Shown here: piece by piece, positions 10,201 to 47,529 of the stretch
Position numbering within the stretch: position 1 is the first letter of the stretch
How the letters are laid out: each line of letters begins with the position of its first letter
Assembly (NCBI GenBank): GCA_964630685.1
Contig: CAZVVW010000002.1
Location: 25,559-89,558 of the forward strand
Reading direction: 5' to 3'
Source of the DNA: an uncultured Methanosarcinales archaeon
Lineage (GTDB): Archaea > Nanobdellota > Nanobdellia > Woesearchaeales > BS150m-G63
DNA: 64,000 nucleotides
Notes under the pieces: model-generated
What the model was told of the DNA's origin: nothing
The model's input: the letters and a program-made list of their open reading frames with translations, nothing else
Databases searched by the model: none
Translations under genes and position numbers: made by a program

Positions 10201-13200
10201 AATGTATGCATTTATACATCCACCATTTTCATATCTTCCTTGTTCATCACAGATATAAACTGTTACATTTTCTCCAAAAGGTTGGTCTGCGTCTGTCCAA
10301 GAGATGCTGAAAGTTACTTCTTCACCCACATTTGTGGGATTTGTAGAATTAGAATCTACCATTACTTCAGTTATATTTGGTGTTGTGCCACTTACTTCAT
10401 AATCATAAATATATCTGGGTTCTGAGAACACTTCTTCTCCATAGTTTGTGTCATCATAAGGAGTTAGTCCACATTTCCAGTAATCTCCTGCTAAAGTTTC
10501 TTCATGAGTTAATATTGAACCTGTTGTTACTGCCCATTCAAAATAACCAGAACCTTGGTCAACATACCACCTGTAGGTGATACTTGTGTTATTAAACATT
10601 TCATTATCACTATCTAAATCAGTTAAATTTGTGTAACTACAATTTAAGGTTTCATTATCTAAAGGATAAATGTCTGCAGGTGTGGAGTTATAAACTGTTA
10701 AGTTAGCACTATCTAAAGTTGGAAGATGATTGATGTAAATATTGTTGTTTTGTGCTAAGGAGTTATAATTATTGCTTCTTTCTGTTGAGTCATAGATGTA
10801 CACATAGTAAGATTGGTTTGTGATGTTATTGTTTAGATTTTCACTATCATAAGTGCAAGTGTATGGTGAAGTGCTTGTAGAGGATAATGTACAGAAAGCA
10901 GTATCAAGACATCCTTCTCTGTTGTGATTGGTTGAGTTACAGATAAATAATTCTACTGTTTCTCCGATATTTGAGTCATACCAGTTTACTGTGAAATTGA
11001 TGTTTGCTTCATATACTAATGGAGCTGTTGAATTAGTGTTTAATGCTACACTTGTTATTTCTGGGGTGATTTCTCCTATAGGTATTTCAGAGGAGATGTT
11101 TTCTGTGCTGTTTACATAACCATCAGATACAATAACTCCACATTTCCATGATTCTCCTTCTGCTGTGTGGTCTGAAGAAAGATTTTGAACTGAAGTGTCT
11201 GCGTCTATATTTTGCCAAGTTCCATTGTTGTATTTATACCAGAAGAAATATTGATCCTCTTCTCCTGCGTAATTGGATGCATTAGTGTTATCACCAGAAA
11301 GATTGAAATCTGCATCTGAGAATGTGTAATTACAATTCAAAGTTTCATTTGTGTTAAAGAAAGTTCCTCCAGAGGAATTTATTATTGAAGTGTTTTGTGC
11401 TGTCGGAACATGGTTTACAGAGAAAGTGCTTACATTTGCAGATGAACATAGGTTTGAATCATCACATATCATTACTGTGAAGTTTACTGTGCCATTATCT
11501 GTTGATTGTACTGTGTATGAAGCGTAAATTGGATTATCTGAAGTGAAATCCACTTCAGTGAAACCTTCATATTCACAACCAGCGTTTTCTATGATGCTGT
11601 CATTTTTACATACATAAGCTTCAACCAATTCTCCAAATGGTTGATCTGCATCTGTCCAATTTATTGCAAATGTCACAACATCTCCGACATTTGTTGGCTC
11701 TGTTGCTGTTGAGCTAGAATCTAGTGAAAGTATTTTTGGAGTTTCATTTACACCATACTGTGTAACTGTAACATTATCTGAGTCTACAGGAACACTGCAA
11801 GTGTAGTTATCACATGTTGTTACTGTACATTTCCATCTTTGACCTAATGATGTTTCTCCACTTACCAGTGTTTCATTGTTGGGATAATCATTTAGAAGTT
11901 GAAATCCTGAACCTTGGTCATAATACCAAGAGTAGTTGTAAGTGAGTGTTGCGTTTTCTGCATCATTTGCTGTGGCGCTACATTCAAGATTATTTGAAGG
12001 CTGAGGTGATGTTGGTGTTAAGTTTACTTCGGTAACTTCTGGTTTTCTGTTTAGATGAATTGTTCCTGTTTCAGTGTCTGAGTTTTCATCTTCATCATAA
12101 ATCCTCATAGTGTAATTGAATTGGGTGGTGTTTGCTGATGCTGTTGTCAATGTTGAGCTGTTGAATTCACAAGTTATAGGATCTGTTGTTGTAAAAGTTG
12201 TTGTGCAGTATTCTGTATTGGAACAGCCAGCAGAAGTTATACTAGAATCATTACAGATGAATAAAGTTACTTGAGCATCATTCCATTGTTCTGGGTCTGA
12301 CCAGTCAACTGTGAAGGTGATGTTTTCATTGAAAGTAATTGGTTCGCTTGAATTTGATCCTTGATATGTTGTTGATTGGATTGTTGGTGCATGACTTTCT
12401 ACAATTCCTTCAGCAGAAACTGCTGTGCTGTTTGCATAACCATCGTTTACTATTACTTCACATTTCCATTCATCTCCGTAAGAAGTGTAATCTGTGCTTA
12501 TTGTTTGTGTACTGAAGTCTTGTTTAACCCATACTCCCTGTACTTTTTTATACCAAGAGAAGTATTGGTCTGATTCAGTGTGGTAATCTGAAGAGTTGTT
12601 TCCTCCACCTGAAACATTATGATCTCCATCATCAAAAGTGTAATTACAACTTAAATCATCTGTTTCATTGATATAAGCACCCCCATTTATACTGACAGTT
12701 TCTGCTGTAGGGATATGATTTACAGAGAAATTGTAAGGTCCTTCAGCAGATGAACAATCATAATTTTCATTACAAACCATTGTGTAATAATTTAGGACGT
12801 GGTTAGTGTTATCTCCATAATCTTCATCTTCTGCTGTGTAGGTTATTGTTAATGGATTGTCTGTTGTCCATCCACTGTAACTGAATTGTTTTGAGCCAGC
12901 AGCACATCCTGTTTGAAGAATGTTTGAGCTGTTACAAATATAAGCCATTGCTGAAGTTGTGTTTGGACTTGCCCAAGATATTATGAAAGTGATATCTTCT
13001 CCAACGTTTGTTGGGTATGTTGCATTAGAATTATCTGTTGCATTTACTACGCTAGTTTCAGTTTCTGTTCCGGTTGATTCTGAAATGGTTATGTCGTCAG
13101 ATGTTTTTGATGTTCCATCTGAATATCCATCATTTGGTATGATTTCACATTTCCATTGATCGCCAAGTTCTGTTGCGCTGAAGCTTAATAAATTTGAAGT

Positions 13201-16200
13201 GTTGGATGTTGGACCATACTGCCAGTAAACTTGCCAATCACCTGAACGTTTTAACCACCATTTGTAAGTGTAAGTCATTGTGTCGTTGTCTGAATCTGTG
13301 GAATCATTAACTGCACATTTTATTGTTGAATCATTAGGAACATAATTTCCTGAGACATATGCTGAATTATTATAATAAGTGATATTTAGACTATTAACAA
13401 TAGGAATATGGTTTACAAAGAAACTATATCCAGATTGGTTTCTACAATCATAATCTGCACTACAGAATAAAAGATTATAATTGATTGGGCCATGACTGTT
13501 TGTTAAGTTGAATACAGGAGTATTTGTTCCTGGTGTAACTACTAATTCATCAACTTTAAAAATTGCTTGAGCTGGATTGTTATAAGTTACTGTTCTATTG
13601 AACTCATACCCCCAACAACCAGAGTTTCTTATGTGGGTATCATTATCACAGACATATAATTTTACATAATCATAAGGACCATCCCAAGTTACATTTACAA
13701 TTATGTCATCGCCTATATTTATGGGTGTAAGAGTTCCCGATTCATTATTAGAATTATCAGATACAGCCGTTATTTCTGGTCCACCACCGGTTTCTGGAAT
13801 GTCTTCACCTAAAGCAGCAGTTACATGGATTTCTGAAGAATTCTTTGATTCCCCATATTCCCATTCATCTATGGGTGTGATTTGACATTTCCATTCATCT
13901 CCTGGCATTGTGTTTCCATGAACTAAGATGTCGTTGTAATCATTATCACACCAAAGGAAATCATCACAAGAACTGAATTCTGTATCGCCGAATGGCTTTA
14001 CAAACCATTCATAAGTGTAATTGATTATTTCATTATAAACAGAATTACCTGTTGTAGCATCCCAGATTATGTCTTCTCCAGAATCATAATTATCATTTTC
14101 ATTTGTATCATGGAAATAACATCCAGTTAAAGAAGTGCCATTTGTTCCGCTACTTACAGATGAGAATTGGAGGATAGTTTTCCAATTTTCACTATTATTA
14201 TATATTAGGGTGTCAATATTATAATCATAATTTGAATCATCATTTACATCAATGTATGCTAGATTTGTATCATTACTGCAAGCCAAGATTGCAGTGCCAT
14301 TTTTTAGGTTTGAATCTTTTTGATTCCTAATATCTGCAAAAGGTGTTTCCCAACCATCTGCATCTATCATAATATCTGAAGTTGTGGTGTTTGTTAAATC
14401 TTGATCGCTTCCAGTTCCTTGAATACATTGGAGATTCCAATCATCATTTATATCTGAAGTGTATGTTAAACCTTCATTATAACTAAGATGATTTGTCCCT
14501 ATATTAACCCAGTTTAGTTTGGCTGCGTGGTTGACTGTGAAGTTGCCGTCTCTCCAGATTGAACATGCTCCACCAACATCACAGATTCTCATGTGGTATA
14601 TTACTTCACTATCATCTACATCTTCTGCTGTATAAGTACATGATTGTTGTTTGTCTGGGCTGTAGTCTGTTTCACAATAGGTTTTAGCCCCTGGACAGCT
14701 ACCAGTATCTGAACCAGAAGCTTTATAATTTATCCTTATATTTGCTTGATCATAATGAGGTCCTCCATCTGATGAGGTGTTATCATAAATAATTGAAGCA
14801 GAACCGGTTTCATGTGCAGCTACTTTTACTGAAGAATCATTATAAGGAATTTCTCCTGAAAGTAAACAGTTATCTAAGTATCCTGAATCTGCTACTTTTC
14901 CTGTTATTCCAAAAATTGTTCTAAATGCTTTACCTACCCAATTTATTAAATCCATTAGCCAGTTTCCTGTTGGTTGTATTCTTGCTGTAGCATAACCTAC
15001 TCCACCCATTTCCATGTCTTCTGAAAAAGCAGGGTCATTTGGATCTGCTATACAGAATTTTAGTGATGTGTATTTATCTGGCAATGGTTGGGCATTATAT
15101 TGCATAGTGAATGTTGTCCATTCTCCAACAGTAAAGGTGTTCCAGTCACTTCTTGCTATTCTCATTTCTGTTGAGCCATAATAATCTGGTACATGAGAAG
15201 TTGGAGAGTCAGTCATTGAAGTGTTGTCTGCTTCGTAAGCTATTATTGAAAATATGAAAGGGGTGTTATATCCTGAGGTGCTGTTTGTTATTCCATCAAT
15301 TATTGCTTGCCTTATTTTGATATCTACTGTGTCTATCATTAATCCTGTTTCATTTGTGTAAACATGAGCAAAATTTCCATCACCTCCAAAGGTGATGTTT
15401 TGGGCACAATAAGTGTCGTTATCACAGCTATAATCCTCTATACCTCCTGTTTTGTCACACACCACCATCATTGCTGATTCACCAACATCTGTGTCTAACC
15501 AATGTGAATCAAAGGTTACATCTTCTCCAACGTTTGTTGGATTGGTAGAGTTAGAATCATCTTCATAATCTATTAATTGAGGAATTGAGTTTCCCCCTAT
15601 TATTGTAACAGAAGAATTTTCATATTCATAATAAGTTGATCCATTAAGCCAAGTCCAATTTCTACTTGTGGAATTAAACCAAACTCTTTCATTATAACAA
15701 AGAGGATTACTCACCCAACTCTCATCATAATCACATACACTTATTGCACATTTTATTTTATCGTTTTGATCAAAATAATTATCTAATGTTGGATTAGTTT
15801 CATCTGGAACTTCAACAAAACTATTTATCCCTTCATTGTTAATGTACCATTTGTATGCTGTTGATTTATCATTAACTGAACCATATTCACTTTCAGTATC
15901 TAGATCAATATCATTAAATGTGAAATTACAAGTTAAGGTGTCATTTCCTAATGGATCTGTTGGAGTGACTTCTGCATTTGAAGCATAAGGTGCTGTGTTG
16001 TTTATTGCATACCATCGCGTGTCGCTGTTTTCTCCACTAGATATTTCAGGTCCATCTTCTTTCCCATCATTAGGAACCATTGCACAAGTGATTTTATCTC
16101 CTTTGAAAGTATGAGAATAACTTAACATAGCAGTACATTCCCAAAGATCTGGATTATCTACTATCCCTTCTTCACAATAGATATCATTTAAATTAGGATA

Positions 16201-17511
16201 CTGTGGAATAGTGTCGTTTGGACCTATTGGGCCCAGATTAATACATGTAGCATCCATATTTTCTTCTACATAATTTGTTCCGCCAGAGAATGTTGCAACT
16301 GTAAAAGTATATTTGGCAGTTATTTCATCATTATTTCCATCACACACAAAACCAGTACAATAGATATCATGAGCTGTTTGTGCGTGTCCTTTTAAGGGAT
16401 CGAGATAAATAGTATCATTTGCAAAATAGGGTTCTGCATTAAATGCTGCTGTTACTATTGCAGAATCATCTGATTCTTGGGTGCCGTCCCATGCAGTTAT
16501 GTAGAAATAGAATAAGGTTGTGTTATAATAGCTAGAGACATTCCAAGGTAGAGATGAACTTCCTAGGATGCCAGTAGTAGTAACGTTTCTGAATGATATA
16601 TAGGCTGGTGATGTGTAGTTCCAATGGGTGTTTTCAGAGACAATATTAGTATAATTCATTCCTGATTCTGCTGTTGCAGCGTAGATATAATAGCCTAAAA
16701 CATCATCTGTATCTCCTCCTGCTACACTAGTATCATCACCTACATTAGGTTCATCAGCAGATCTTGTCCAATTAATATCAATTCCTAATTCTCCTTGGTC
16801 ATCTAGATGGTCTGCTGCGTTAACATTTGTTGGAGGATCTGGTGCGTTATTATCTATAGTGGTTGCATTTATACAACTAGATTCGTTTTCATTACCTGAA
16901 GCGTCAACTGAAGTGACTTTAAAACCATAAGTGGTATTTACTTCCAGATTTTCCCAAGTAAAAGAAGAGATTCCTGCAGATACTGAATCATTATAGTTGT
17001 TATTTGTACATGATCCATTAGGGTGCAATTTTATCAAGTAATGGTCTATATAATTTATTCCTTGTCCATCATCTGAAGGTAAAGTCCAGTGTAAATCAAT
17101 TGCAGTTCCTTGATCATTTTCTGTATCTTCTGCATATAATCCTATTACTTCTTGAGGGGTTGTGTTATCTGAAGCAGTTGCATTCCCACTATCCGTATCT
17201 ATTAAACCATTTGTACTGTTATAAGAACTTACAGTGAAGGTATGTTCATTTGTATCTCCTGCAGTATACATATAATCCAGAGTCATACCATTTAGTACTT
17301 GTATACCGTCAATGTATAATTGATAACTTACTGCATTTGTATCATTTGTCCATTCTGCTTTTATTTGCAATTCGTTGTTTTCTTGGTTTTCTAATGTCAG
17401 ATCAGTTGCATTTACAGAATTAGTTAATAATATTAAAAATAAAGCCACAGCTATTAAGAAAACATAACTTTTAAGATTTACTTTCTCCTCTTTTTTTAGT
17501 GCTTTGTTCAT
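1288..17511 (-). CDS. Giant (5,407 aa) secreted, membrane-anchored surface protein; probably an adhesin or S-layer-like glycoprotein
   Basis: Uninterrupted 16.2 kb ORF. N-terminal signal peptide (KSYVFLIAVALFLILLTNSVNA). Extremely N/T/S/D-rich with a very high density of N-x-S/T sequons. About seven tandem ~220-aa repeats (PTNVGE.VTF..W ... WKC....DGY.NST). Five Cys-rich DCGGPC repeats. A single TM helix (IIPLNLIPYLIAIIVVLVAIIGFVL) followed by a ~200-aa charged cytoplasmic tail. Confidence 0.85.
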   Translation of the reverse strand: MNKALKKEEKVNLKSYVFLIAVALFLILLTNSVNATDLTLENQENNELQIKAEWTNDTNAVSYQLYIDGIQVLNGMTLDYMYTAGDTNEHTFTVSSYNSTNGLIDTDSGNATASDNTTPQEVIGLYAEDTENDQGTAIDLHWTLPSDDGQGINYIDHYLIKLHPNGSCTNNNYNDSVSAGISSFTWENLEVNTTYGFKVTSVDASGNENESSCINATTIDNNAPDPPTNVNAADHLDDQGELGIDINWTRSADEPNVGDDTSVAGGDTDDVLGYYIYAATAESGMNYTNIVSENTHWNYTSPAYISFRNVTTTGILGSSSLPWNVSSYYNTTLFYFYITAWDGTQESDDSAIVTAAFNAEPYFANDTIYLDPLKGHAQTAHDIYCTGFVCDGNNDEITAKYTFTVATFSGGTNYVEENMDATCINLGPIGPNDTIPQYPNLNDIYCEEGIVDNPDLWECTAMLSYSHTFKGDKITCAMVPNDGKEDGPEISSGENSDTRWYAINNTAPYASNAEVTPTDPLGNDTLTCNFTFNDIDLDTESEYGSVNDKSTAYKWYINNEGINSFVEVPDETNPTLDNYFDQNDKIKCAISVCDYDESWVSNPLCYNERVWFNSTSRNWTWLNGSTYYEYENSSVTIIGGNSIPQLIDYEDDSNSTNPTNVGEDVTFDSHWLDTDVGESAMMVVCDKTGGIEDYSCDNDTYCAQNITFGGDGNFAHVYTNETGLMIDTVDIKIRQAIIDGITNSTSGYNTPFIFSIIAYEADNTSMTDSPTSHVPDYYGSTEMRIARSDWNTFTVGEWTTFTMQYNAQPLPDKYTSLKFCIADPNDPAFSEDMEMGGVGYATARIQPTGNWLMDLINWVGKAFRTIFGITGKVADSGYLDNCLLSGEIPYNDSSVKVAAHETGSASIIYDNTSSDGGPHYDQANIRINYKASGSDTGSCPGAKTYCETDYSPDKQQSCTYTAEDVDDSEVIYHMRICDVGGACSIWRDGNFTVNHAAKLNWVNIGTNHLSYNEGLTYTSDINDDWNLQCIQGTGSDQDLTNTTTSDIMIDADGWETPFADIRNQKDSNLKNGTAILACSNDTNLAYIDVNDDSNYDYNIDTLIYNNSENWKTILQFSSVSSGTNGTSLTGCYFHDTNENDNYDSGEDIIWDATTGNSVYNEIINYTYEWFVKPFGDTEFSSCDDFLWCDNDYNDILVHGNTMPGDEWKCQITPIDEWEYGESKNSSEIHVTAALGEDIPETGGGPEITAVSDNSNNESGTLTPINIGDDIIVNVTWDGPYDYVKLYVCDNDTHIRNSGCWGYEFNRTVTYNNPAQAIFKVDELVVTPGTNTPVFNLTNSHGPINYNLLFCSADYDCRNQSGYSFFVNHIPIVNSLNITYYNNSAYVSGNYVPNDSTIKCAVNDSTDSDNDTMTYTYKWWLKRSGDWQVYWQYGPTSNTSNLLSFSATELGDQWKCEIIPNDGYSDGTSKTSDDITISESTGTETETSVVNATDNSNATYPTNVGEDITFIISWASPNTTSAMAYICNSSNILQTGCAAGSKQFSYSGWTTDNPLTITYTAEDEDYGDNTNHVLNYYTMVCNENYDCSSAEGPYNFSVNHIPTAETVSINGGAYINETDDLSCNYTFDDGDHNVSGGGNNSSDYHTESDQYFSWYKKVQGVWVKQDFSTQTISTDYTSYGDEWKCEVIVNDGYANSTAVSAEGIVESHAPTIQSTTYQGSNSSEPITFNENITFTVDWSDPEQWNDAQVTLFICNDSSITSAGCSNTEYCTTTFTTTDPITCEFNSSTLTTASANTTQFNYTMRIYDEDENSDTETGTIHLNRKPEVTEVNLTPTSPQPSNNLECSATANDAENATLTYNYSWYYDQGSGFQLLNDYPNNETLVSGETSLGQRWKCTVTTCDNYTCSVPVDSDNVTVTQYGVNETPKILSLDSSSTATEPTNVGDVVTFAINWTDADQPFGELVEAYVCKNDSIIENAGCEYEGFTEVDFTSDNPIYASYTVQSTDNGTVNFTVMICDDSNLCSSANVSTFSVNHVPTAQNTSIINSSGGTFFNTNETLNCNYTFSDADFNLSGDNTNASNYAGEEDQYFFWYKYNNGTWQNIDADTSVQNLSSDHTAEGESWKCGVIVSDGYVNSTENISSEIPIGEITPEITSVALNTNSTAPLVYEANINFTVNWYDSNIGETVELFICNSTNHNREGCLDTAFCTLSSTSTSPYTCTYDSENLNNNITNQSYYVYIYDSTERSNNYNSLAQNNNIYINHLPTLDSANLTVYNSTPADIYPLDNETLNCSYTNLTDLDSDNEMFNNTSITYRWYVDQGSGYFEWAVTTGSILTHEETLAGDYWKCGLTPYDDTNYGEEVFSEPRYIYDYEVSGTTPNITEVMVDSNSTNPTNVGEEVTFSISWTDADQPFGENVTVYICDEQGRYENGGCINAYIQAYAQTTNPITLTYTTTETDLSTSNYSIQIVDSDGQVSNYDNDSFAVNHKPNATTPLTIQIDEETLHCNFTYHESTFTTDRNDSEITNAQSDIYSFFEWYEYLNSNWTQLSETSRNLTMAFTGGEVIRCRVLVGDQWELTDTDFKNASNTTVIPAPTTPTLWPLDALNNNNAQITGYLPEDNVNNITIQAYAWQGYANPKDNSTTTLSTSTLKGTSAVIDTFETNSSFVVINNANHTHFNTTNYIEFANHDKEDFLRYQITEHQEIIPDESYRINISPVLNQTVPTGTIVYAYNSSEPQGWFNFTLNLHADDNTIKARAIKTIEGGYNLTGDWTSAEETFSDNENPAIGINDIPNYETSTTPTISFNLTDNYGINLPTLLLNITGTQNKTHVTSDTSYNTTEWSNLGDNISCTPTSSTNYDCQVVLNLTSGTYNLTFNINDSAENTFSTTKSNYWINSSPAPSEEFTVVRTTPEFNNTNLTFNVSIPQNISSNGTLQYTIGTAVYPNTGWNSITGWRNLTSFGTDEDYISYSNISSSWTNLSLYTNEDENLTLTPHTIYVANVRYQIYNWSLWSDVKTTQAMKYFPPYDVGTGPTAVNVTAPLYSFSPTIPISWTGSSDDKYDISYYVIAAGTAEYNESGWNDTQAQWLNAGNTLTHSLEFEANELTHQASYYFTIAAVNTIGKMSTPISSFGTTYYDQTPPTIEINSVANDTDSSDGWLDTNEDDITLINITADENSTCYYSLYDQDYADRDSTKGDKYCNATTEIIGINLTCNITDEDDEPLTQGNHTYYIICQDDREIPNEQSRDENTEINFTVNWPDEPVVDNLTIDIAIYTSSANERNLTNPAYALTNDVLFCNYISSDLDGNGTVDDSLTQYKWYIDGTEITGQTTDYLDLSVNGSAGDNIICEVNITDTTGLSSGFIQSNHSNFNSTVYINNSIPTTATQIAPINNTWHTDSIDFDWTDSTDADEDGINYTLYIYNSSEILESSNETSDSNITINLTDYSDNNYTWYIKSCDNSSFTNNCTESINLTFKVDQTSPTIDITSPTEDQSVGILVEFWANITDTLNQVVDYPTYEILNSSNETIASGFLISLNNQYYASWIPTGFTSGNYSIVITANDSLGNSGNSTRNFALDLLAPYIVVDPDEWEFRAQWLNNNSNLIMDSFVNSTNTTFGSPLNYSVNLSYNIYKTGTIIKTNSTENTSETFWWNHSIPLNTPDWTDGRYDVVFNVTDTLNNTVLLETWFVVDKTAPEYANQKITTSSNSSTVYNDDNVTLSIDWLNNMFIWDANENNIDKDRTTIIWTYNTSNSDVHQEMNLSSETLEFLDDTFFGTIPENETNKTETIYWKSISYDLAGNMRDTSNSSTNETYWFSFTVASETPVFNSTIADISWPEDTDYTNLTLSDYFSDADDNLTHTYTMYPKGLLLYDSLNNLTEIIDFNNGSYENINQENGINNNSILIQSEIENLLLNGDFNESTEDAEHVTTPQDWVRHSYPVYTHNAPPEYVTVNEHNYYSQLITVTENTNYTLSQYMATNSTQGNGRLHINWFNELYPTDETTNKTISYLGSTLDCESSQNCSGIIAITSTPDINESTSRRILTLTSPQESAYAQIVIDSDSNSTWVKIDKVQFEQKEYASTFLAEHRLPGKLTYPITSQYNVTRNNFNKEEGTIEMFIKPTWNGSETLNEDAVFFDIRLDEAIEDATPAVLTSGESPYIFTITANATPSEITGTAQEPFSVTPENNLFKVNISGEYSEINLSENPLIRIVLIQNLALTNLPSTIEAGTITTFTNLDDATYNISFTGPENLSTEDLSYGESFTHLFPTAGVYNYSFTLHPEVNGTFTVTEKTDYRNLTAEDVKTLLDMNLDNEIVNVSTSTNNSIKLETIETGSTKFIQILNGTANELLGFTNQIYTGADATTDNTLLEITISGDSYNISFSAGNLTVDKVVETINTEIPGLATADNTTFNLTTTTDGSSATIFIGDESANDVLGFTSNETEEGIDAVDDLFWLGRKDNKFVFGIREREDKAEINITNLNNQEWTFVAARWDEDTISLTINNEITTDNRTTSEELADIDNTTFNDLTIYIGSNGAQTEQANAYIDELAIYDYARSDTDLLNDYNNNSTIYLNGTYTTDGEINTTINESDSNNVTTTFSPFTDWFGYQRIRFFVNDSFTKIASNLLNLYVTPVNDAPRKVFGNETIENQSWWMDNSHTLDLSNYFHDIEDDELTYYEIYLTANYKIKASINGSIVTFTQPTGWNGEEKISFNVTDGEYWNSSNNIALNVYLNRIYNTTIDETDYNDSYGSDGTDLTTIYLAEIYDSTIYKEDTNLTTINESFINLSTIDESIIINDSTVFNSTINDSTLIRTTVLNSDIIHVTLTDTYVDGAFIDPSNVTNSNVTGSSRIIDSNVTDSNINNSNVTNSEIDNSDLYYSSVDLSTISNLILRYANVTNDFLNSGAVYNSDDEELWNTTNNGTTPLANITNYPPIITYFSLTESESQNNTYILSFRYNDSNLNYSFPDNITWTINWGEGTTSEGTNSSNPSESFTDSNTYSSSGNYTVTLTITDLYEQTVTQSETITITISSGTTQPSGGGGGNGLSGSTVMETIETCTDGIKNQDEMGIDCGGVCAACPGPTCYDGIKNQNEAGVDCGGPCYTACSTATCSDNIKNQGEEGVDCGGPCSACTVRATCSDNIQNQGEEGVDCGGPCSKCTTCSDYIQNQGEEGVDCGGPCSKCPKVEQPLFGIIPLNLIPYLIAIIVVLVAIIGFVLRGKLLPPKRPEIKPAEIKPTLIPVEGPAPITEQKPIKESKQEIKPAETKPKLKPVEQPSEEDKFKDLKKYVSTRLANGFNKNHIKQTLIIKGWPEEVLDVALDGSKELKDTLSTVENYINSSYAEGYNLEEIRQSLLEQGWSEGITDLLLFNVHKPHQDTKQLKAYINYKLSQGKTADEVKQLLQSVGWGKEVIDSVI
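1987..2364 (-). repeat. Five tandem ~27-aa Cys-rich repeats (C.D.I.NQ.E.GVDCGGPC..C) within the giant protein, membrane-proximal
   Basis: The DNA-level direct repeats (aaggtccaccacaatctaccccttcttccccttg...) are visible. The protein repeats are CSDNIQNQGEEGVDCGGPCSKC and variants. Confidence 0.8.
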
Positions 17512-17795
17512 ATCTCTTCTAGTTTTCCAGTTTTTTCTTGTCGGTATTCTTTAAGGGTTTTCTTGAGATGTTCTTTTTTTATTCCTAGTTTGTCTGACTT
17601 GTTGTCTATTTCTATTATCATCGGTTCTTCTTCTAGAGCTGGCGCTGCTATTTTTTTTAGCAGGATGCCTTCTTCTAAGATAGAATGTAGCCAAAAACCA
17701 GTTCCTTCTTTTATGTTGAGTTCTGCTCTAATGTCTTTAGGAATTACTAGTTGTCCTCTGTCATCACACTGAATTATCTTTGGGTATTTTTTCAT
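17508..17795 (-). CDS. AbrB/SpoVT-family transcriptional regulator (95 aa from the ATG; the ORF track starts at TTG 17810), translationally coupled to the giant surface-protein gene
   Basis: MKKYPKIIQCDDRGQLVIPKDIRAELNIKEGTGFWL is the swapped-hairpin AbrB domain and is paralogous to the 1002..1163 ORF. The stop overlaps the giant gene start as ATGA. Confidence 0.65.
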   Translation of the reverse strand: MKKYPKIIQCDDRGQLVIPKDIRAELNIKEGTGFWLHSILEEGILLKKIAAPALEEEPMIIEIDNKSDKLGIKKEHLKKTLKEYRQEKTGKLEEI

Positions 17796-17798
17796 AGT

Positions 17799-17814
17799 CC
17801 TTTTGCGCAAAAGG
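17799..17814. promoter_or_regulatory. Perfect 16-nt palindrome CCTTTTGCGCAAAAGG immediately 5' of the AbrB ATG, followed by a T-run
   Basis: Direct reading. Forms a 7-bp GC-containing hairpin 4 nt upstream of the start codon. Confidence 0.5.
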
Positions 17815-18097: not shown

Positions 18098-18204
18098 GGG
18101 CCTGTAGCCTAGCCTGGGCAAAAAGAATCATAAATTCTTTTAGGGGCAAATAAGGCGACAGCCTTCTAAGCTGTAGATCGAGGGTTCAAATCCCTCCAGG
18201 CCCG
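18098..18204 (+). tRNA. tRNA-Arg (anticodon TCT) with a ~33-nt intron inside the D-loop
   Basis: GGGCCTG acceptor; D-stem GCCT/AGGC with a D-loop AGCCTGG[intron]TA; anticodon arm ACAGC-CTTCTAA-GCTGT; T-arm GAGGG-TTCAAAT-CCCTC; 3' acceptor CAGGCCC plus discriminator G. Confidence 0.8.
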
Positions 18205-18250: not shown

Positions 18251-19417
<1,167 letters not shown>

Positions 19418-21221
19418 GGGTTCCTTCTTTTCCTATTTTAGCAAATTCTTCATCAAATTCAGTATTTTTTTCTTTGTTAAATTCTACTTTTTCAACCTTG
19501 CCTCTTTGTTGTTCTAATAGGTTTTTTAAGGAGTTTTCTATTGTTATTTTTTGATCTTTTTCAAGAGCAAGTAATTCAATAAGTGCATCTGCTACATGTG
19601 GAATATATTTTTCAATATAACTTCTTTTTTTTATTTCGTCTCCCACTCTTTTCTTTTTGTGAACATATTGCCCAAGTTTTCTTCCACATTCTTGGATTGC
19701 TAATCTTATTTCTTTTATAATTTCTGGATAATGAGCTATTGCTTCTTTTGATTCTGAAGTAAAAGGCACCCAAACTGATGCTATATGTACTGATAAGGTT
19801 AAAGGCCCAACAGGCAATGAACCATTACTTTGACTCAATCCATAATTTCTCCAAGTAGTTGATGTTGTGCCTTTTGCTACTGCTCCTGCACTTTGTTGAT
19901 ATAATAATGGAACACGATTAGCGAACCTCAATAATCTGATTGATTTATCCGATGGTTGTTCTCCACCATAAGCAATAGTCGCTTCAATTATGAATGGATT
20001 TCCCCTATATACTGCAGGTGGTCTTGTAGATGAAGCATAAAATTCTGCATTAACCACTCTTCTCAATCCTTTTTCAAATAAATTAGAACCTATTGGAGAA
20101 ACACTATCTGTTGGAGGATTCATTAGTTTTGTTTTTTTAATTCCTTCCATTAATTGAGTGGACATTTCCCTACTCATTTTTTTAGGTTTAGTTTTAGGTA
20201 ATAATAAAGCATTTTCACAAATTCTTTTTGCAGTTCCGGAACCTACTCTTGTGAATTCTTTTGTAAGAAATGATTGAAGAGTTTTTGCATCTGTGGTGCT
20301 AATCATTTTAATCATAGTACCAGTTTCAACACCATAAGGGTGAGGTTTAGTTTCTTTTGGTTCTTTAGGTAATTTTTCTGTAACTCTTGGAAAAATAATT
20401 TGATTGGCTTTTGGATTTGTATAAATTATTGTGGCATGGGGATTTGTAATTGATGTTTGTTTTAGATATTCATCAACAGATTGTGCTCCTAATTGATAAC
20501 TTCCTTCAAGATCTATTTCTATTTTAGTACCATGATCTTTTTCCCATTCTACTATTTCTGTTTTAACTATTTGTTCTTTGTTTTTTTGGGTGTTAATGTG
20601 AAGTTCATAATAATGCGCTGGTTGGTTTTTTCCAATTTTAGATGTTATTTTAGCTGGTTTTCCTGTAGTCATTTGACCATACATTACAGAAGCAGAAATA
20701 CCAATTCCTTGTTGTCCTCTACTTTGTTTTAATGAATGGAATTTACTTCCATAAAGAAGTTTTGCAAAGATTTTTGGAATTTGAGCTTTTACTATTCCAG
20801 GACCATTATCTTCAATGATTACCTTAAATCTATCTTCTCCTATCTCAATTAATTGGATATTAATTTCAGGTAAAATATTTGCTTCTTCACACGCATCTAA
20901 AGAATTATCTACAGCTTCTTTTATTGTTGTGAGTAAGGCCTTTCTTTTATTATCAAAACCTAATAAGTGCCTATTTCTCGCAAAGAATTCAGCAACACCT
21001 ATATCTCTTTGTTTTTTTGCCAATTCATGAGCTTTTGTTTGAACCGGAGCTGTTTTTTGAGTTTTCTCCCCTTTTTTTTCATCGATAAACGAATCTAAAC
21101 CCATTGTTTTTTCAGACATAACAAAAATTAAATTAGGATTAGTTTAATAAACTTTTCGTTACTAAAATATCTATTATGTTTTTTATGTGTGGATAAAATT
21201 AAGGAGAAATATTATTAAAAT

Positions 21222-26166: not shown

Positions 26167-26190
26167 TCTTATTCCTTGGAGGAAAATAAG

Positions 26191-26526
26191 ATGAGTGAAT
26201 TATCAAAAGAACTTATAGATAATGTGTTTGAAGCAATTGAAATTGTAAAAGGTACTGGAAAACTTCATAAAGGAGTTAATGAGGTTACTAAAGTTATTGA
26301 AAGGGGCGATGCTAAATTAGTTGTGGTGGCTGGAGATATTAGTCCTGCAGAAATTACTATGCATTTACCATTACTTTCAAAAGAAAAAGGAATAAAGTGC
26401 GTTACTGTTGATAAGAAAGAAGAACTTGGAGCAGCTGCAGGATTGGGAGTTTCTACTGCTGCAGTAGCAATAGTGAAAGAAGGAGACGCAAAAGATTTGA
26501 TTAAAAAAATAAATAGTCAACTATAG
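26191..26526 (+). CDS. rpl7ae: Ribosomal protein L7Ae. The start is taken at the ATG with a GGAGG Shine-Dalgarno; the ORF track begins at TTG 26176
   Basis: KLVVVAGDISP..ITMHLPLLSKEKGIKCVTV..KEELGAAAG matches the L7Ae/L30e fold. Confidence 0.85.
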   Translation: MSELSKELIDNVFEAIEIVKGTGKLHKGVNEVTKVIERGDAKLVVVAGDISPAEITMHLPLLSKEKGIKCVTVDKKEELGAAAGLGVSTAAVAIVKEGDAKDLIKKINSQL

Positions 26527-32536: not shown

Positions 32537-32941
32537 AGTAATACATTAGAAACCCACGAGAAAAAGCAAGGAATCTTTTTTGATGGACAAGTGTTTGATG
32601 CTTACACTTTTGTTTCTGATTTAATACAAAAAGCTGAAAAAGAGATTATTTTAATTGATAATTTTATTGATGACTCTGTCTTAACATTGTTTTCTAAAGT
32701 TAATAAAAATGTGAAAATAAAAATGTATACTAAAAATATCTCTAAACAACTAAAATTAGATGTTGAAAAATTCAATGAGCAGTATGGTCGGATTATTCTT
32801 AAAGAGTTTAATAAAAACCATGATAGGTTCTTAATCATTGATTCAGAAGTTTATCATTTTGGTGCTTCTCTTAAAGATCTTGGTAAGAAATGGTTTGCTT
32901 TCTCTAAGTTTGAAAAAAAAATCTATAAATATATTAAATGA
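32537..32941 (+). pseudogene. Open reading frame with no upstream ATG (the track starts at GTG 32591); possible 5'-truncated gene remnant
   Basis: The frame is open from 32537 with no in-frame ATG. It contains an H-x-R-x4-D-x5-GAS segment (HDRFLIIDSEVYHFGASLKDLGKK). It interrupts the expected L11-L1-L10-L12 gene order. Confidence 0.3.
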
Positions 32942-42080: not shown

Positions 42081-42157
42081 TTTAGGTAGTGGTCTGACAA
42101 TGTTTTTTTGTTGTCTTTATATGTTTTTTGGTTTAGTGATGAATTTTGGATTATAAC

Positions 42158-42274
42158 TACAGTTTCGGCTGGGGTTTGCAAAATTTGTTTTGCTAATCCT
42201 TGAAGACGAAGTCTTCTTGAGCTACCGATAAGCGATATAAATCAATTGCGTTGATTTAATCCCTTTACATACCC
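42158..42274. repeat. Repeat copy A (ctacagtttcggctg ... agcgatataaatcaa-N5-ttgatttaatcccttt ... ttgattaatt) in the rpoH operon leader
   Basis: Shares roughly 60 nt of near-identical flanks with copy B at 42769..42874. Contains the TTTATAT box and the GAAGAC hairpin. Confidence 0.7.
42198..42221 (-). promoter_or_regulatory. Conserved hairpin motif CAAGAAGAC-TTC-GTCTTCAAGG (UUCG-type tetraloop), ~120 nt upstream of rpoH (copy 1 of 3)
   Basis: Read on the minus strand: CTCAAGAAGACTTCGTCTTCAAGGATT. Confidence 0.5.
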
Positions 42275-42331
42275 ATTGATTAATTACTTTTTTTTAAAAG
42301 TAATCGTGTTTTGTTTGTTTTTGATTATAAA

Positions 42332-42460
42332 TGGGCCGGACGAGATTTGAACTCGCGACCACTTGATTTCTTGATGTCATATTGCTTGACACTTAAAAGT
42401 CAAGTGCTCTATTGCCCACATTTGGCAATTAAATGCTGTTCCAGGCTGAGCTACCGGCCC
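42332..42460 (-). tRNA. tRNA-Lys (anticodon TTT) with two introns: ~29 nt in the D-loop and ~26 nt in the anticodon loop
   Basis: Minus-strand parse: GGGCCGG-TA-GCTC-AGCCTGG[AACAGCATTTAATTGCCAAATGTGGGCAA]TA-GAGC-A-CTTGA-CTTTTA[intron]A-TCAAG-TGGTC-GCGAG-TTCAAAT-CTCGT-CCGGCCC-A. Confidence 0.75.
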
Positions 42461-42463
42461 AAA

Positions 42464-42584
42464 CGCCCTGGCCGGGACTTTCAATCCTTAGCCATTTGGG
42501 TTAACAAAGGCTAAATAAGGCTTTTTGAACCCGGGTCGAAGCCTCGACAGGGCTTCATGATAGGCCGAACTACACTACCAGGGC
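42464..42584 (-). tRNA. tRNA-Asp (anticodon GTC) with a ~46-nt intron inside the T-loop
   Basis: Minus-strand parse: GCCCTGG-TA-GTGTAGTTCGGCCTATCA-anticodon arm AAGCC-CTGTCGA-GGCTT-T-stem CCGGG-TTCAAA[intron]T-CCCGG-CCAGGGC-G. It lies 3 nt upstream of tRNA-Lys. Confidence 0.75.
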
Positions 42585-42768
42585 ATTGTCTCAATGCAAC
42601 CAGAATAATCCTCTTTTGGCTCATAGGAGCGTTTTTAGACCTTAAATTTTGTCTAGAAGGATTATTTAGGCATGCGGTATTGAAATCTTTAAGGGTTTAT
42701 AAAGCTATCGTAAATAAATAGAGAATAAGGAAAAAACAAAGAAAAACAAGAAAAAAGAAATAAAAGAA

Positions 42769-42874
42769 TCCCCGCTGCCGGATTGGAGACCTACAGTTTC
42801 GGCTGAATAGGCTTCGAGAAGCGATATAAATCAACATAGTTGATTTAATCCCTTTGTACTCTTTTTGATTAATT
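42769..42874. repeat. Repeat copy B carrying an exact 16-nt duplicate of the tRNA-Tyr 3' end (tccccgctgccggatt)
   Basis: 42769..42784 is identical to 42898..42913. The remainder matches copy A's flanks, including the TTTATATCGCTT box and the taaatcaa-N5-ttgattta hairpin. Confidence 0.7.
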
Positions 42875-42897
42875 GCTTTGATTGAAAAGAAAAATGA

Positions 42898-43019
42898 TCC
42901 CCGCTGCCGGATTTGAACCAGCAACCTTTCGGTTACGGCTGATTGTTTTTCATTCTTAGCGGATATGCATAGTCCAACAATCTCTACAGCCGAACGCTCT
43001 ACCGTTGAGCTAAGCGGGG
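42898..43019 (-). tRNA. tRNA-Tyr (anticodon GTA) with a ~50-nt intron at the canonical 37/38 position
   Basis: Minus-strand parse: CCCCGCT-TA-GCTC-AACGGTA-GAGC-G-TTCGG-CTGTAG[intron]A-CCGAA-AGGTT-GCTGG-TTCAAAT-CCGGC-AGCGGGG-A. Confidence 0.75.
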
Positions 43020-43046
43020 ATAAGATTGGAGAAAAGGGCTTTACTT

Positions 43047-43559
43047 TTAAATATTTCTGATTTTATTGAATATTAGTTTAACAGATTCTTCTGGATTAAG
43101 TTTATTAGAATCTATAGTTATCAAAGGATTTTCTTCTTTTTTATATGGAGCATTGATTCCTGGAAGAGATATTTCACCTTGCTTTGCCCTGAGATATAGA
43201 TTATGGATTCCTGGCTCATTGATTCTCTTGTTCTCTCTTTCTTCACAAATTTTTATCGGACAATCTATCTGAATCACAAAAAAATCTCGAATTAGTTCTT
43301 TTGCTTTTTTTCTACCTACCTGCAGATTATCTGTTGCATCAATGATTATATTCTGCTCTTGGGATAGTTCTGCTGCCTTTTTTGCTAATTTAGTGTAAAC
43401 AAAAATTCTTTCTTGTTCATCATATTTTGGCTCTGAAACTATTTCTTTTCTGAATTTGTCGAGGTGAAGAACTTGAGCATTTATTTTTTCAGCTAAAAAT
43501 TTTGCAATCGTACTTTTTCCAGAACCGGGGAGCCCAGTTATCCAAATTGCGAAGAACAT
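43047..43559 (-). CDS. Adenylyl-sulfate (APS) kinase-like P-loop kinase
   Basis: IWITGLPGSGKST P-loop. The C-terminal ICEEREN...LYLRAKQGEISLPGINAPYKKEENPLITID is co-linear with the CysC ICEARD..GLYKKARAGEL.NFTGID. Confidence 0.55.
   Translation of the reverse strand: MFFAIWITGLPGSGKSTIAKFLAEKINAQVLHLDKFRKEIVSEPKYDEQERIFVYTKLAKKAAELSQEQNIIIDATDNLQVGRKKAKELIRDFFVIQIDCPIKICEERENKRINEPGIHNLYLRAKQGEISLPGINAPYKKEENPLITIDSNKLNPEESVKLIFNKIRNI

Positions 43560-45594: not shown

Positions 45595-47529
<1,935 letters not shown>

Follow-up and report, generated by a model that had tools for sequence, protein, structure and literature searches.

The stretch of DNA analysed here, a window of 64 kb, comes from the chromosome of a Woesearchaeota (DPANN) archaeon and contains four tRNA genes, every one of which is interrupted (4/4), with five short insertions in total. 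The genes for tRNA-Tyr(GUA), tRNA-Asp(GUC) and tRNA-Lys(UUU) sit upstream of rpoH, and a gene for tRNA-Arg(UCU) is found at 18098. Three of the insertions occupy non-canonical sites, namely the D-loop in tRNA-Lys and tRNA-Arg and the T-loop in tRNA-Asp. The taxonomic placement was made through protein comparisons: the window encodes split archaeal RNA polymerase genes, Topo VI, S3Ae and L15e, and the nearest kin of its RpoB'' are Woesearchaeota/Nanoarchaeota genome bins, some records of which are filed under other names. The features at the locus are listed below.

43045 to 43054, reverse strand: TATA-like box ATATTTAAAA, about 26-35 nt upstream of tRNA-Tyr
42898 to 43019, reverse strand: tRNA-Tyr(GUA) gene, 122 nt, two exons (43019-42984 and 42933-42898)
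42934 to 42983, reverse strand: tRNA-Tyr intron, 50 nt, after position 37 (37/38); a repeated A makes 38/39 equally possible
42950 to 42974, reverse strand: K-turn-like motif in the tRNA-Tyr intron, made up of GA-C, a hairpin and G-AAU-GA, with a flanking helix AUUGUU/AACAAU
42696 to 42703, reverse strand: TATA-like box TTTATAAA, upstream of the Asp-Lys pair
42464 to 42584, reverse strand: tRNA-Asp(GUC) gene, 121 nt, two exons (42584-42524 and 42477-42464)
42478 to 42523, reverse strand: tRNA-Asp T-loop intron, 46 nt, at 59/60, between TTCAAA and T
42332 to 42460, reverse strand: tRNA-Lys(UUU) gene, 129 nt, three exons
42412 to 42440, reverse strand: tRNA-Lys D-loop intron, 29 nt, between G19 and U20
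42368 to 42393, reverse strand: tRNA-Lys anticodon-loop intron, 26 nt, at 37/38
18098 to 18204, forward strand: tRNA-Arg(UCU) gene, 107 nt, two exons
18118 to 18149, forward strand: tRNA-Arg D-loop intron, 32 nt, at the same site as the tRNA-Lys D-loop intron

In its default mode ARAGORN reported no tRNAs in the 64 kb, and with the -i option it returned two wrong calls, Leu(caa) and Asn(gtt), and was unusable for these genes. Covariance-model calling, which had been suggested as a check on the initial, sequence-only reading of this DNA, was successful in part: the Rfam tRNA model called tRNA-Tyr (56.9 bits) and tRNA-Lys (50.4 bits, with two insertions), both with large insertions, but gave only a partial match to tRNA-Arg (34.7 bits) and left the unspliced tRNA-Asp below threshold (18.1 bits). 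Once the five insertions are deleted, ARAGORN calls Tyr(gta) of 72 nt, Asp(gtc) of 75 nt, Lys(ttt) of 74 nt and Arg(tct) of 75 nt as regular cloverleaves, whereas the unspliced forms yield none. The spliced tRNA-Lys and tRNA-Asp also align without gaps to intron-less Woesearchaeota orthologues, with 69 of 74 and 70 of 75 positions identical, respectively. The sequence-only reading had proposed that tRNA-Lys needs two excisions, one in the D-loop between GG and UA and the other at 37/38, and both the coordinates and the spliced cloverleaf agree with this; the insertion that it placed inside the T-loop of tRNA-Asp (TTCAAA...T) and the 50-nt canonical intron that it described for tRNA-Tyr were likewise confirmed, at 42523-42478 and 42983-42934. 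Split or permuted tRNA genes were not seen, every exon being colinear within 107-129 nt. Self-splicing group I and group II introns have a ribozyme core of hundreds of nucleotides; the insertions are just 26-50 nt long, and there was no match to an Rfam intron family in the window.

The BHB motif consists of two 3-nt bulges with a 4-bp helix between them and flanking helices on either side, and cleavage takes place after the second nucleotide of the bulge. The motifs at the five junctions are written out below, with helices in square brackets, bulges in parentheses and a slash at the cut.

tRNA-Lys D-loop: D-stem-A-[GCCU](GG/A)[ACA]...[UGU][GGGC](AA/U)-A-D-stem
tRNA-Arg D-loop: [GCCU](GG/G)[CAAAAAGA]...[UCUUUUAG][GGGC](AA/A)
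tRNA-Asp T-loop: [CCGGG][UUCA](AA/A)[AGCCUUA]...[UAAGGAU][UGAA](AG/U)[CCCGG]
tRNA-Lys anticodon loop: [CUUGA][CUUU](UA/A)[GUGUCA]...[UGACAU][CAAG](AA/A)[UCAAG]
tRNA-Tyr anticodon loop: central helix C32-U35/GCCG with a U33-C mismatch, and an extra A opposite the 5' bulge

In our junction tables the central helix is fully paired (4/4) and the bulges are of 3 nt in the tRNA-Lys D-loop, tRNA-Arg D-loop and tRNA-Asp T-loop introns, and just three of the four central pairs form, giving a relaxed BHB, in the tRNA-Lys anticodon intron and the tRNA-Tyr intron. The outer helices contain single mismatches, and an A14-A21 mismatch lies between the D-stem and the central helix in both tRNA-Lys and tRNA-Arg. 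At the non-canonical sites it is the conserved tRNA sequence that supplies half of the motif, as the D-loop GCCU together with the D-stem in tRNA-Lys and tRNA-Arg, and as the T-loop UUCA together with the T-stem in tRNA-Asp; all that is left for the intron to provide is the complementary end, GGGC-AA or UGAA-AG, and a short helix formed within itself. Plain minimum-energy folding recovered the tRNA-Lys anticodon and D-loop motifs roughly and led to alternative pairings for tRNA-Asp and tRNA-Tyr, and in the minimum-energy fold of pre-tRNA-Tyr a helix between C29-G34 and the intron sequence CAGCCG is favoured over the BHB register. A BHB motif search had also been recommended as a check. When the scan was rigid and strict, requiring 4/4 central pairs and outer helices that run for 2 bp or more without a break, it returned chance matches and passed over the true sites; it was replaced by fixed-register junction tables and covariation counts.

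The BHB helices covary among 15-16 orthologues. For the D-loop motif, in whose alignment (A2) the tRNA-Arg intron forms one row, 87% of cells are paired compared with 71% in shuffles, with none of 500 shuffles as high; when the partner columns are slid, pairing falls to 21-41%, and double changes occur in 8/8 of the intron-helix pairs. The corresponding values for the T-loop motif are 81% and 71%, again with 0/500 shuffles as high. Among the orthologues of the tRNA-Asp T-loop intron the T-stem is paired in 100%, the central helix in 95% and the intron-side helix in 62%, and the observed covariation was reached by none of 500 shuffles. The central helix of the tRNA-Lys anticodon intron is paired in 75 of 80 cells across 20 orthologues. 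Within tRNA-Tyr, the last four nucleotides ahead of the 3' bulge have the form G-[C/U]-N-G, and in each of the 14 orthologues they form pairs with U35, G34 and C32; MAFFT combined with RNAalifold recovered only the invariant exon/intron helix from these introns.

The TATA-like box upstream of tRNA-Tyr was read from the sequence and is conserved in L001, the closest species-level relative. Following the box upstream of the Asp-Lys pair, whose two genes are separated by only UUU (42463-42461), is a 53-nt leader segment (42692-42640) which is also conserved with L001. No structure is predicted for this leader, which precedes tRNA-Asp (z = 0.45), and it occurs elsewhere in L001 only. We infer that the two boxes may function as promoters and that the leader may have a role of its own. 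Two repeated elements flank Asp-Lys. They are absent from 80/80 related loci, a pattern scan of metagenomes found none, and matches to viral contigs stop at about 30 nt, which is consistent with chance; no support was found for these repeats as a split tRNA, a viral attachment site or a known RNA family. Elsewhere in the window, a weak match to Rfam sR4 at 32594-32642 lies inside a plausible ORF and was judged to have arisen by chance.

We consider it highly probable, from the sequence comparisons, that these are four functional tRNA genes, each interrupted by archaeal BHB introns, in a Woesearchaeota chromosome. The locus has the attributes of tRNA genes with non-canonical or multiple introns, having introns at sites other than 37/38 and, in the case of tRNA-Lys, at least two introns in one gene. 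Given that standard tools fail on these genes, one might instead regard them as decaying pseudogenes carrying junk insertions, with functional intron-free copies elsewhere in the genome, beyond the 64 kb that the analysis covered. We view this as very improbable, since the exons are 95.0% identical to those of L001 whereas the introns are only 69.5% identical, compensatory changes are found in the acceptor and anticodon stems among orthologues, and the insertions obey the BHB geometry, with covariation. Interrupted genes are also found at the matching syntenic position in many species, the order Tyr-Asp-Lys-rpoH being retained over many loci, and all four tRNA genes of the window are interrupted. 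The window probably derives from a metagenome-assembled genome, which raises the question of whether the insertions are artefacts of assembly, such as chimeric joins or misassembled repeats. This we find scarcely credible, because the 966-nt intergenic block containing the island recurs at 100% identity in four other, independent metagenome assemblies that come from different samples, and at 99.9%, with one base changed, in a fifth, and because L001 has introns at the same sites. The population is represented in samples of the ENA SUTE22-1 series and in JGI 3300009106 and 3300009128.

If these genes follow established archaeal tRNA processing, tRNA-Tyr would be transcribed alone and tRNA-Asp and tRNA-Lys together, after which the ends would be trimmed by RNase P and RNase Z. 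EndA would cut after the second nucleotide in each bulge, RtcB would ligate the exons, and CCA, which is not encoded in the genes, would then be added. The elbow formed between G18G19 and the T-loop would presumably be blocked until the D-loop and T-loop introns had been removed. The sequence-only reading had pointed to a splicing endonuclease of the heterotetrameric type. Kaneta et al. (2018) surveyed DPANN, including Pacearchaeota and Woesearchaeota, and linked tRNA disruption instead to an alpha4-type EndA bearing an L3 insertion (PMC5829648), L3 being, with L1/CSL and L2/ASL, an insertion that broadens EndA specificity, and so the enzyme to be expected here, judged by this literature, would be a broad-specificity DPANN EndA of that alpha4 type. 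The window has 53 ORFs with a length of 90 aa or more, and a scan of 42 of them turned up no EndA, RtcB or other splicing gene.

Orthologues of tRNA-Lys and tRNA-Asp in other Woesearchaeota contain zero, one or two introns at the corresponding sites, which points to frequent gain and loss; the introns are evolutionarily labile. The double-intron layout of tRNA-Lys (D-loop and anticodon loop) is shared by 11 orthologues, a count that leaves out L018 on inspection. The D-loop introns of tRNA-Lys and tRNA-Arg end in GGGCAA at a common insertion point, as the sequence-only reading had stated, and this had been taken to suggest a mobile or related intron family. A single family transposing between tRNA genes would fit with the presence/absence polymorphism among orthologues, and for Thermoproteales it has been suggested that introns move from one tRNA species to another (Fujishima 2010, as relayed in PMC4033280 and PMC4090602). 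However, the end is common to both introns because GGGC pairs with the D-loop GCCU and AA are the bulge nucleotides before the cut. The intron GGGC also tracks changes in the exon GCCU, such that the exon and intron sides of the central helix read GCUU/GAGU in the L049 orthologue and GUCC/GGAU in L021. When the last 6 nt are left out, the tRNA-Lys and tRNA-Arg introns are 46% identical; the mean for shuffles is 50%, and an equally high score is reached by 773 of 1000 of them. With the end being set by BHB pairing and the remainder unrelated, the claim of a mobile family is not supported, and we regard such an origin as decidedly improbable. An old common origin of the two introns, which have since diverged, may apply; the comparison involves one tRNA-Arg gene.

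For DPANN, a Woesearchaeote among them, earlier work has already recorded tRNA introns that are non-canonical or multiple, and the earlier statement that they are known in some Thermoproteales and a few DPANN lineages is in line with the literature (PMC5829648, PMC4090602), where positions 20/21 and 59/60 are listed as known non-canonical intron sites (PMC4090602). The disrupted tRNA genes of DPANN (ARMAN-2/Micrarchaeum, Nanoarchaeota, Pacearchaeota and Woesearchaeota; PMC5829648 and PMC3239211, the latter being Fujishima et al. 2011) resemble those described here in having non-canonical BHB introns and more than one per gene. That literature ties the phenomenon to EndA variants with a broad substrate range; the 42 window ORFs scanned here gave no EndA. 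Those papers give counts per genome, to which the present locus adds site-level detail: D-loop introns at 19/20 and a T-loop intron at 59/60, their covariation, presence and absence at one syntenic locus, and the K-turn of the tRNA-Tyr intron. The multi-intron tRNA genes of Thermoproteales (Sugahara et al. 2008; Fujishima et al. 2010), as they are portrayed in PMC4033280 and PMC4090602, also have up to several BHB introns in a gene, some of them in the D-arm and T-arm, and they too gain and lose introns rapidly. They differ in belonging to hyperthermophilic Crenarchaeota with an (alpha-beta)2 EndA that has a Crenarchaea-specific loop, and, going by the same two sources, in that similar introns recur in different tRNAs through transposition, whereas the two D-loop introns here share junction nucleotides only. 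The nuclear tRNA genes of the red alga Cyanidioschyzon merolae likewise carry BHB-dependent introns that are ectopic and multiple, lying in the D-arm and T-arm as well as in the anticodon arm (PMC3728597, PMC9602550); this is a eukaryote with another endonuclease, and some of its genes are permuted, unlike the present genes, which show no permutation or splitting.

The tRNA-Tyr intron has a further conserved feature. The K-turn box pair NNGA-C ... G-NRU-GA is conserved in 13/13 orthologues, in all of which the GA and UGA are invariant. The distance from UGA to a conserved CAG is 8 nt in every one of the 13, taking the first CAG as the anchor (L053, L055 and L058 were read by hand), so that the K-turn keeps a constant distance from the 3' strand of the splice motif. 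The closing pair is G-C in 12 orthologues and A-U in L004, and the flanking helix covaries. A conserved K-turn of the L7Ae type in a tRNA-Tyr intron was not found described in the literature that we searched. The window itself encodes an L7Ae, at 26176-26526. One possibility, which we put forward tentatively on the basis of these sequence features, is that L7Ae binds the K-turn, which might then scaffold the weak, AT-rich BHB for the endonuclease, or might, by forming a small RNP, keep the intron stable once it has been excised and probably circularised.

The same boxes could be read as those of a complete box C/D guide RNA for tRNA 2'-O-methylation, for which the tRNA-Trp intron of Euryarchaeota is the precedent (Clouet-d'Orval et al. 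2001; Singh et al. 2004; as presented in PMC7994747); like the tRNA-Tyr intron, it is an anticodon-loop intron with K-turn-forming boxes, presumably bound by L7Ae. The conserved pair of D'-like NNGA and C'-like RAUGA would be consistent with this, as would the perfect CUGA...GUGAUGA...CUGA arrangement in some orthologues (L040, L047), the constant 11-nt spacing from UGA to the D-like box, and the weak, sub-threshold matches of the L040 intron to sR30 and sR39 (13.2 and 12.4 bits, respectively, with E of about 1-2). We nonetheless consider a complete guide RNA unlikely. The terminal C box is absent, since tandem G-A pairs need an A that the anticodon loop CUGUAGA does not have; in the window, as in its nearest relatives, the D-like box reads CCGU or UCGU, and no Rfam family scored above threshold. 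The two segments that would serve as guides are paired to one another and are free to covary, which prevents them from targeting a conserved site. What the intron has is the K-turn-forming pair, without the terminal C/D pair or N+5 target guides. Set beside the tRNA-Trp intron as depicted in PMC7994747, it lies in tRNA-Tyr, has an internal D'/C'-like pair only, and has flanks that pair mutually rather than with exon targets.

Should the K-turn prove functional, it would tie L7Ae to the splicing of tRNAs in a lineage whose RNA is very AT-rich, and if the tentative role that we propose for it is true, this would be a form of archaeal tRNA splicing that is assisted by a protein and that differs from the guide-RNA intron of tRNA-Trp. 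The recurrent presence and absence of introns at the same D-loop and T-loop sites fits with conserved tRNA loops acting as a ready-made half of the splice motif and hence as hot spots for intron gain, and one syntenic locus followed over dozens of species provides clean data from which to date when introns were gained and lost. Default tRNA finders miss each of the tRNAs in the 64-kb window, and because of this Woesearchaeota bins will look tRNA-poor unless intron-aware archaeal models are used, an apparent poverty that affects both completeness estimates and claims of missing tRNAs in DPANN.

All four tRNA genes of the window are interrupted, since a structure-based scan for an intact T-arm and acceptor stem found no further tRNA-like gene in it. 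ARAGORN reports no tRNA in the window in its default mode and miscalls two genes when introns are allowed. The Rfam tRNA model gives three matches at its gathering threshold, at 43019-42898 (-), aligned with a large anticodon-loop insertion, at 42460-42332 (-), aligned with insertions in both the D-loop and the anticodon loop, and, in part only, at 18144-18204 (+); a further match at 42584-42528 (18.1 bits) is sub-threshold and loses the T-arm. The genes and the motif discussed below, with all gene and insertion coordinates confirmed by re-extraction, are:

43019-42898, minus strand: tRNA-Tyr(GUA), 50 extra nt after position 37
42584-42464, minus strand: tRNA-Asp(GUC), 46 nt inserted in the T-loop, separating TTCAAA from T
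42460-42332, minus strand: tRNA-Lys(UUU), insertions of 29 nt (G19/U20) and 26 nt (37/38)
18098-18204, plus strand: tRNA-Arg(UCU), 32 nt in the D-loop, placed as in Lys
42950-42974, minus strand: predicted K-turn (box D'/C'-like) motif within the Tyr intron (42934-42983)

Deleting the five stretches lets ARAGORN call four regular cloverleaves of 72, 75, 74 and 75 nt (Tyr, Asp, Lys and Arg) with the expected anticodons, and it finds nothing in the unspliced sequences. The earlier reading of the four genes, on the minus strand and at the Arg locus, agrees exactly with ours, insertions included: Lys does need two excisions to form a cloverleaf, Asp is split inside its T-loop, and Tyr carries a 50-nt intron. 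Its observation of interrupted tRNA genes is confirmed and its core interpretation was right.

In the archaeal bulge-helix-bulge (BHB) motif each strand comprises an outer helix, a 4-bp central helix, a 3-nt bulge and an outer helix, and is cut after the second bulge nucleotide (arrows). The Lys D-loop intron fits this as D-stem GCUC-A-[GCCU](GG↓A)[ACA] ... [UGU][GGGC](AA↓U)-A-GAGC, and that of Arg as GCCU-A-[GCCU](GG↓G)[CAAAAAGA] ... [UCUUUUAG][GGGC](AA↓A). The Asp motif, [CCGGG][UUCA](AA↓A)[AGCCUUA] ... [UAAGGAU][UGAA](AG↓U)[CCCGG], uses the T-stem as one outer helix and has one G-A mismatch in its intron-side helix. The Lys anticodon intron lies in the canonical register, [CUUGA][CUUU](UA↓A)[GUGUCA] ... 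[UGACAU][CAAG](AA↓A)[UCAAG], with three of four central pairs formed. The Tyr motif is relaxed: C32-U35 makes three of four pairs with GCCG, U33 being mismatched, the 5' bulge faces one extra A, and the minimum-energy fold of pre-tRNA-Tyr favours an alternative helix in which C29-G34 pairs with CAGCCG of the intron.

These junctions were examined in fixed-register mini-alignments of orthologues recovered in 80 related loci found by an RpoB'' search (L001 and similar handles below), comprising 15 Lys genes and the window's Arg for the D-loop motif and 15 Asp genes for the T-loop motif. Standard pairs fill 87.1% of cells in the D-loop motif, compared with 70.9% when the 3' letters are shuffled, and 81.2% compared with 71.4% in the T-loop motif; no shuffle out of 500 reached the observed pairing in either case, and sliding the partner columns left 21-41% and 28-57% paired, respectively. 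The D-stem and T-stem, which are the exon-side outer helices, are 100% paired, the central helices 98% and 95%, and the intron-side helices 75% and 62%. The exon side, being tRNA, is strict and invariant; the intron side is looser. Double changes occur in 8/8 intron-helix pairs of the D-loop motif (for example ACA/UGU, GAAACAU/AUGUUUC, AAACC/GGUUU, GCGGCGCA/UGCGUCGC and AGUUUUUU/GAAAAACU); the second intron-side pair of the T-loop motif is recurrently mismatched. Among Lys anticodon introns (n=20), 75/80 central-helix cells are paired.

Were the insertions assembly artefacts, they would not be expected in independent material, yet four other metagenome assemblies carry the 966-nt intergenic block with the Tyr, Asp and Lys genes at 100% identity and a fifth at 99.9%, all from different samples (ENA SUTE22-1 series; JGI 3300009106, 3300009128), and in L001, the closest relative, these three genes precede rpoH in unchanged order, interrupted at the same four positions. 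Decay into pseudogenes is at odds with the comparison to L001, where exons are 95.0% identical (210/221) against 69.5% for the insertions (114/164) and stem differences are compensatory (for example U7-A66 to G7-C66 in the Tyr acceptor stem), and with the gapless alignment of spliced Lys (69/74 identical) and Asp (70/75) to intron-less orthologues of other species. Taken together, these data exclude both explanations, and the genes are under selection. As to the proposal that the Lys and Arg D-loop introns form a mobile or related family, they do share a site and a GGGCAA end, as had been noted, but GGGC forms the intron side of the central helix, pairing with the D-loop GCCU common to both tRNAs, and AA supplies two bulge nucleotides. 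The intron end tracks the exon in L049 (GCUU with GAGU-AA) and L021 (GUCC with GGAU-AA), and once the last six nucleotides are set aside the introns share 46% identity, below the shuffle mean of 50% (773/1000 shuffles were as high). The common end, judged from these sequences, is a structural necessity and therefore no evidence for such a family, which is not supported; an old common origin may still apply, in a comparison of two sequences only.

The Tyr intron contains a further conserved motif, X - N-GA-C - hairpin - G-(N R U)-GA - N N - X' - CAG, in 13/14 aligned introns (the window, L001, L004, L005, L012, L040, L047, L048, L053, L055, L058, L066 and L080; L078 does not fit). GA and UGA are invariant, as is the U before GA, which follows a purine, and the hairpin-closing pair is G-C in 12 and, by compensatory change, A-U in L004. 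The flanking X/X' helix covaries (AUUGUU/AACAAU in the window, AACAAU/AUUGUU in L048, ACUCGC/GCGAGU in L053, ACGCA/UGCGU in L012), averaging 5.5 in length for cognate and 3.3 for mismatched partners, and UGA lies 8 nt from the invariant CAG in 13/13 (counted by hand from the first CAG in L053, L055 and L058). A K-turn has a closing G-C pair, a 3-nt bulge and tandem G-A/A-G pairs, and by its sequence the motif corresponds to this consensus as a box D'/C'-like pair. L7Ae, encoded at 26176-26526, could plausibly bind it. An intronic guide RNA of the tRNA-Trp type is suggested by perfect CUGA ... GUGAUGA ... CUGA in L040 and L047 and by weak, sub-threshold matches of L040 to the Rfam archaeal C/D families sR30 and sR39. 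However, the window's intron has no terminal C box, its D-like box is CCGU and its would-be guides pair with each other, and so it does not qualify as a guide of that type (PMC7994747). In the literature searched we found no description of this K-turn, the sole such feature of the locus.

Gene content and RpoB'' relatives identify the host, on sequence grounds, as a DPANN archaeon of the Woesearchaeota. The window (G+C ~31%) encodes a split archaeal RNA polymerase (rpoH, B'', B', A', A''), topoisomerase VI, ribosomal proteins S3Ae, L15e, L7Ae and S28e, EF-2 and FtsZ; relatives whose organism name is informative are genome bins of Woesearchaeota/Nanoarchaeota, many other loci being deposited under other names, and the nearest is Yap5000.bin1.9 (L001; 84% amino-acid identity). 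A single ORF of 5407 aa (1288-17511 (-)) would encode a giant protein of a sort common in DPANN, and the 100-aa ORF before it (17508-17810 (-)) has a MazE/AbrB-type domain. A gyrase B gene (45622-47529 (+)) lacks an adjoining gyrA and is followed by the S3Ae gene, with both topoisomerase VI subunits in the same window (18251-21119 (-)). A 116-aa ORF (32591-32941 (+)) has no Pfam match; the weak Rfam sR4 (C/D box) match inside it (32594-32642; 20.8 bits, E = 2.3) was judged chance.

With gene structure, splice geometry and conservation established, processing can be sketched from established archaeal tRNA pathways. Tyr would be transcribed from its own TATA-like box (43054-43045), and Asp and Lys, 3 nt apart, co-transcribed from a TTTATAAA box (42703-42696), the leader being roughly 85 nt long. 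The ends would be trimmed by RNase P and RNase Z, the bulges cleaved by the endonuclease EndA and the exons joined by RtcB; CCA would be added post-transcriptionally, because none of the four genes encodes it, and the G18G19/T-loop elbow could form only after removal of the D-loop and T-loop introns. A scan of 42 ORFs of the window revealed neither EndA nor RtcB. Interrupted tRNAs of this kind are already known, as the sequence-only reading had stated: 20/21 and 59/60 are among listed non-canonical positions (PMC4090602), multiple-intron tRNAs and proposed intron transposition are described for Thermoproteales (PMC4033280), and Kaneta et al. 2018 (PMC5829648) predicted the tRNA genes of DPANN archaea that include a Woesearchaeote. 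In the last study more tRNA disruption in DPANN is associated with an alpha4-type EndA bearing an L3 insertion, rather than the heterotetramer that had been expected, an expectation that should be revised.

A 53-nt stretch (42640-42692 (-)) between the TTTATAAA box and tRNA-Asp, some 55 nt before the gene, is about 85% identical to L001, whereas its flanks have diverged. No structure is predicted for it (z = 0.45), no Rfam family matches, and it was not found in the other 79 loci; it could be a leader element or small RNA. Two copies of another element (42716-42876 and 42083-42325 (-)) lie just downstream of tRNA-Tyr and tRNA-Lys. A 78-nt direct repeat (42226-42303/42815-42892) accompanies them. 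Common to both are the 15-mer CAGCCGAAACTGTAG and a palindrome that overlaps a TATA-like box (TAAATCAAC..GTTGATTTATATCGC), and at the end of the first copy the tRNA-Tyr 3' half is duplicated in degenerate form (..TCCAATCCGGCAGCGGGGA, 42806-42769). Both are absent from L001, and no relatives were found in the related loci, a metagenome scan or viral contigs; the element may have been left by integration at the tRNA gene, or be a miniature mobile element or small RNA gene.

Intron sites among parsed orthologues (Lys and Asp counts corrected on inspection)
Lys (37): no intron, 8; D-loop only, 4; anticodon loop only, about 12; D-loop and anticodon loop, 11; other, L018 and L072
Asp (24): no intron, 1; T-loop only, 8; anticodon loop only, 3; D-loop only (at another site), 3; anticodon loop and T-loop, 7; D-loop and anticodon loop, 2; other, none
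Tyr (15): intron absent in 1 (L064)

A second insertion, in the T-arm, occurs in Tyr of L004 (4712-4868) and L075 (5060-5231). In Lys of L018 (5286-5420) two insertions flank the anticodon; the T-loop intron of L011 Asp (132-390) reaches 135 nt and the D-loop intron of L025 Lys (5541-5728) 85 nt. The presence and absence counts show the same sites of one syntenic gene repeatedly filled or empty, which fits the idea that conserved tRNA loops provide a ready-made half of the splice motif. The main value of the locus is practical, for tRNA annotation in DPANN bins, and comparative, for following intron turnover at fixed sites.
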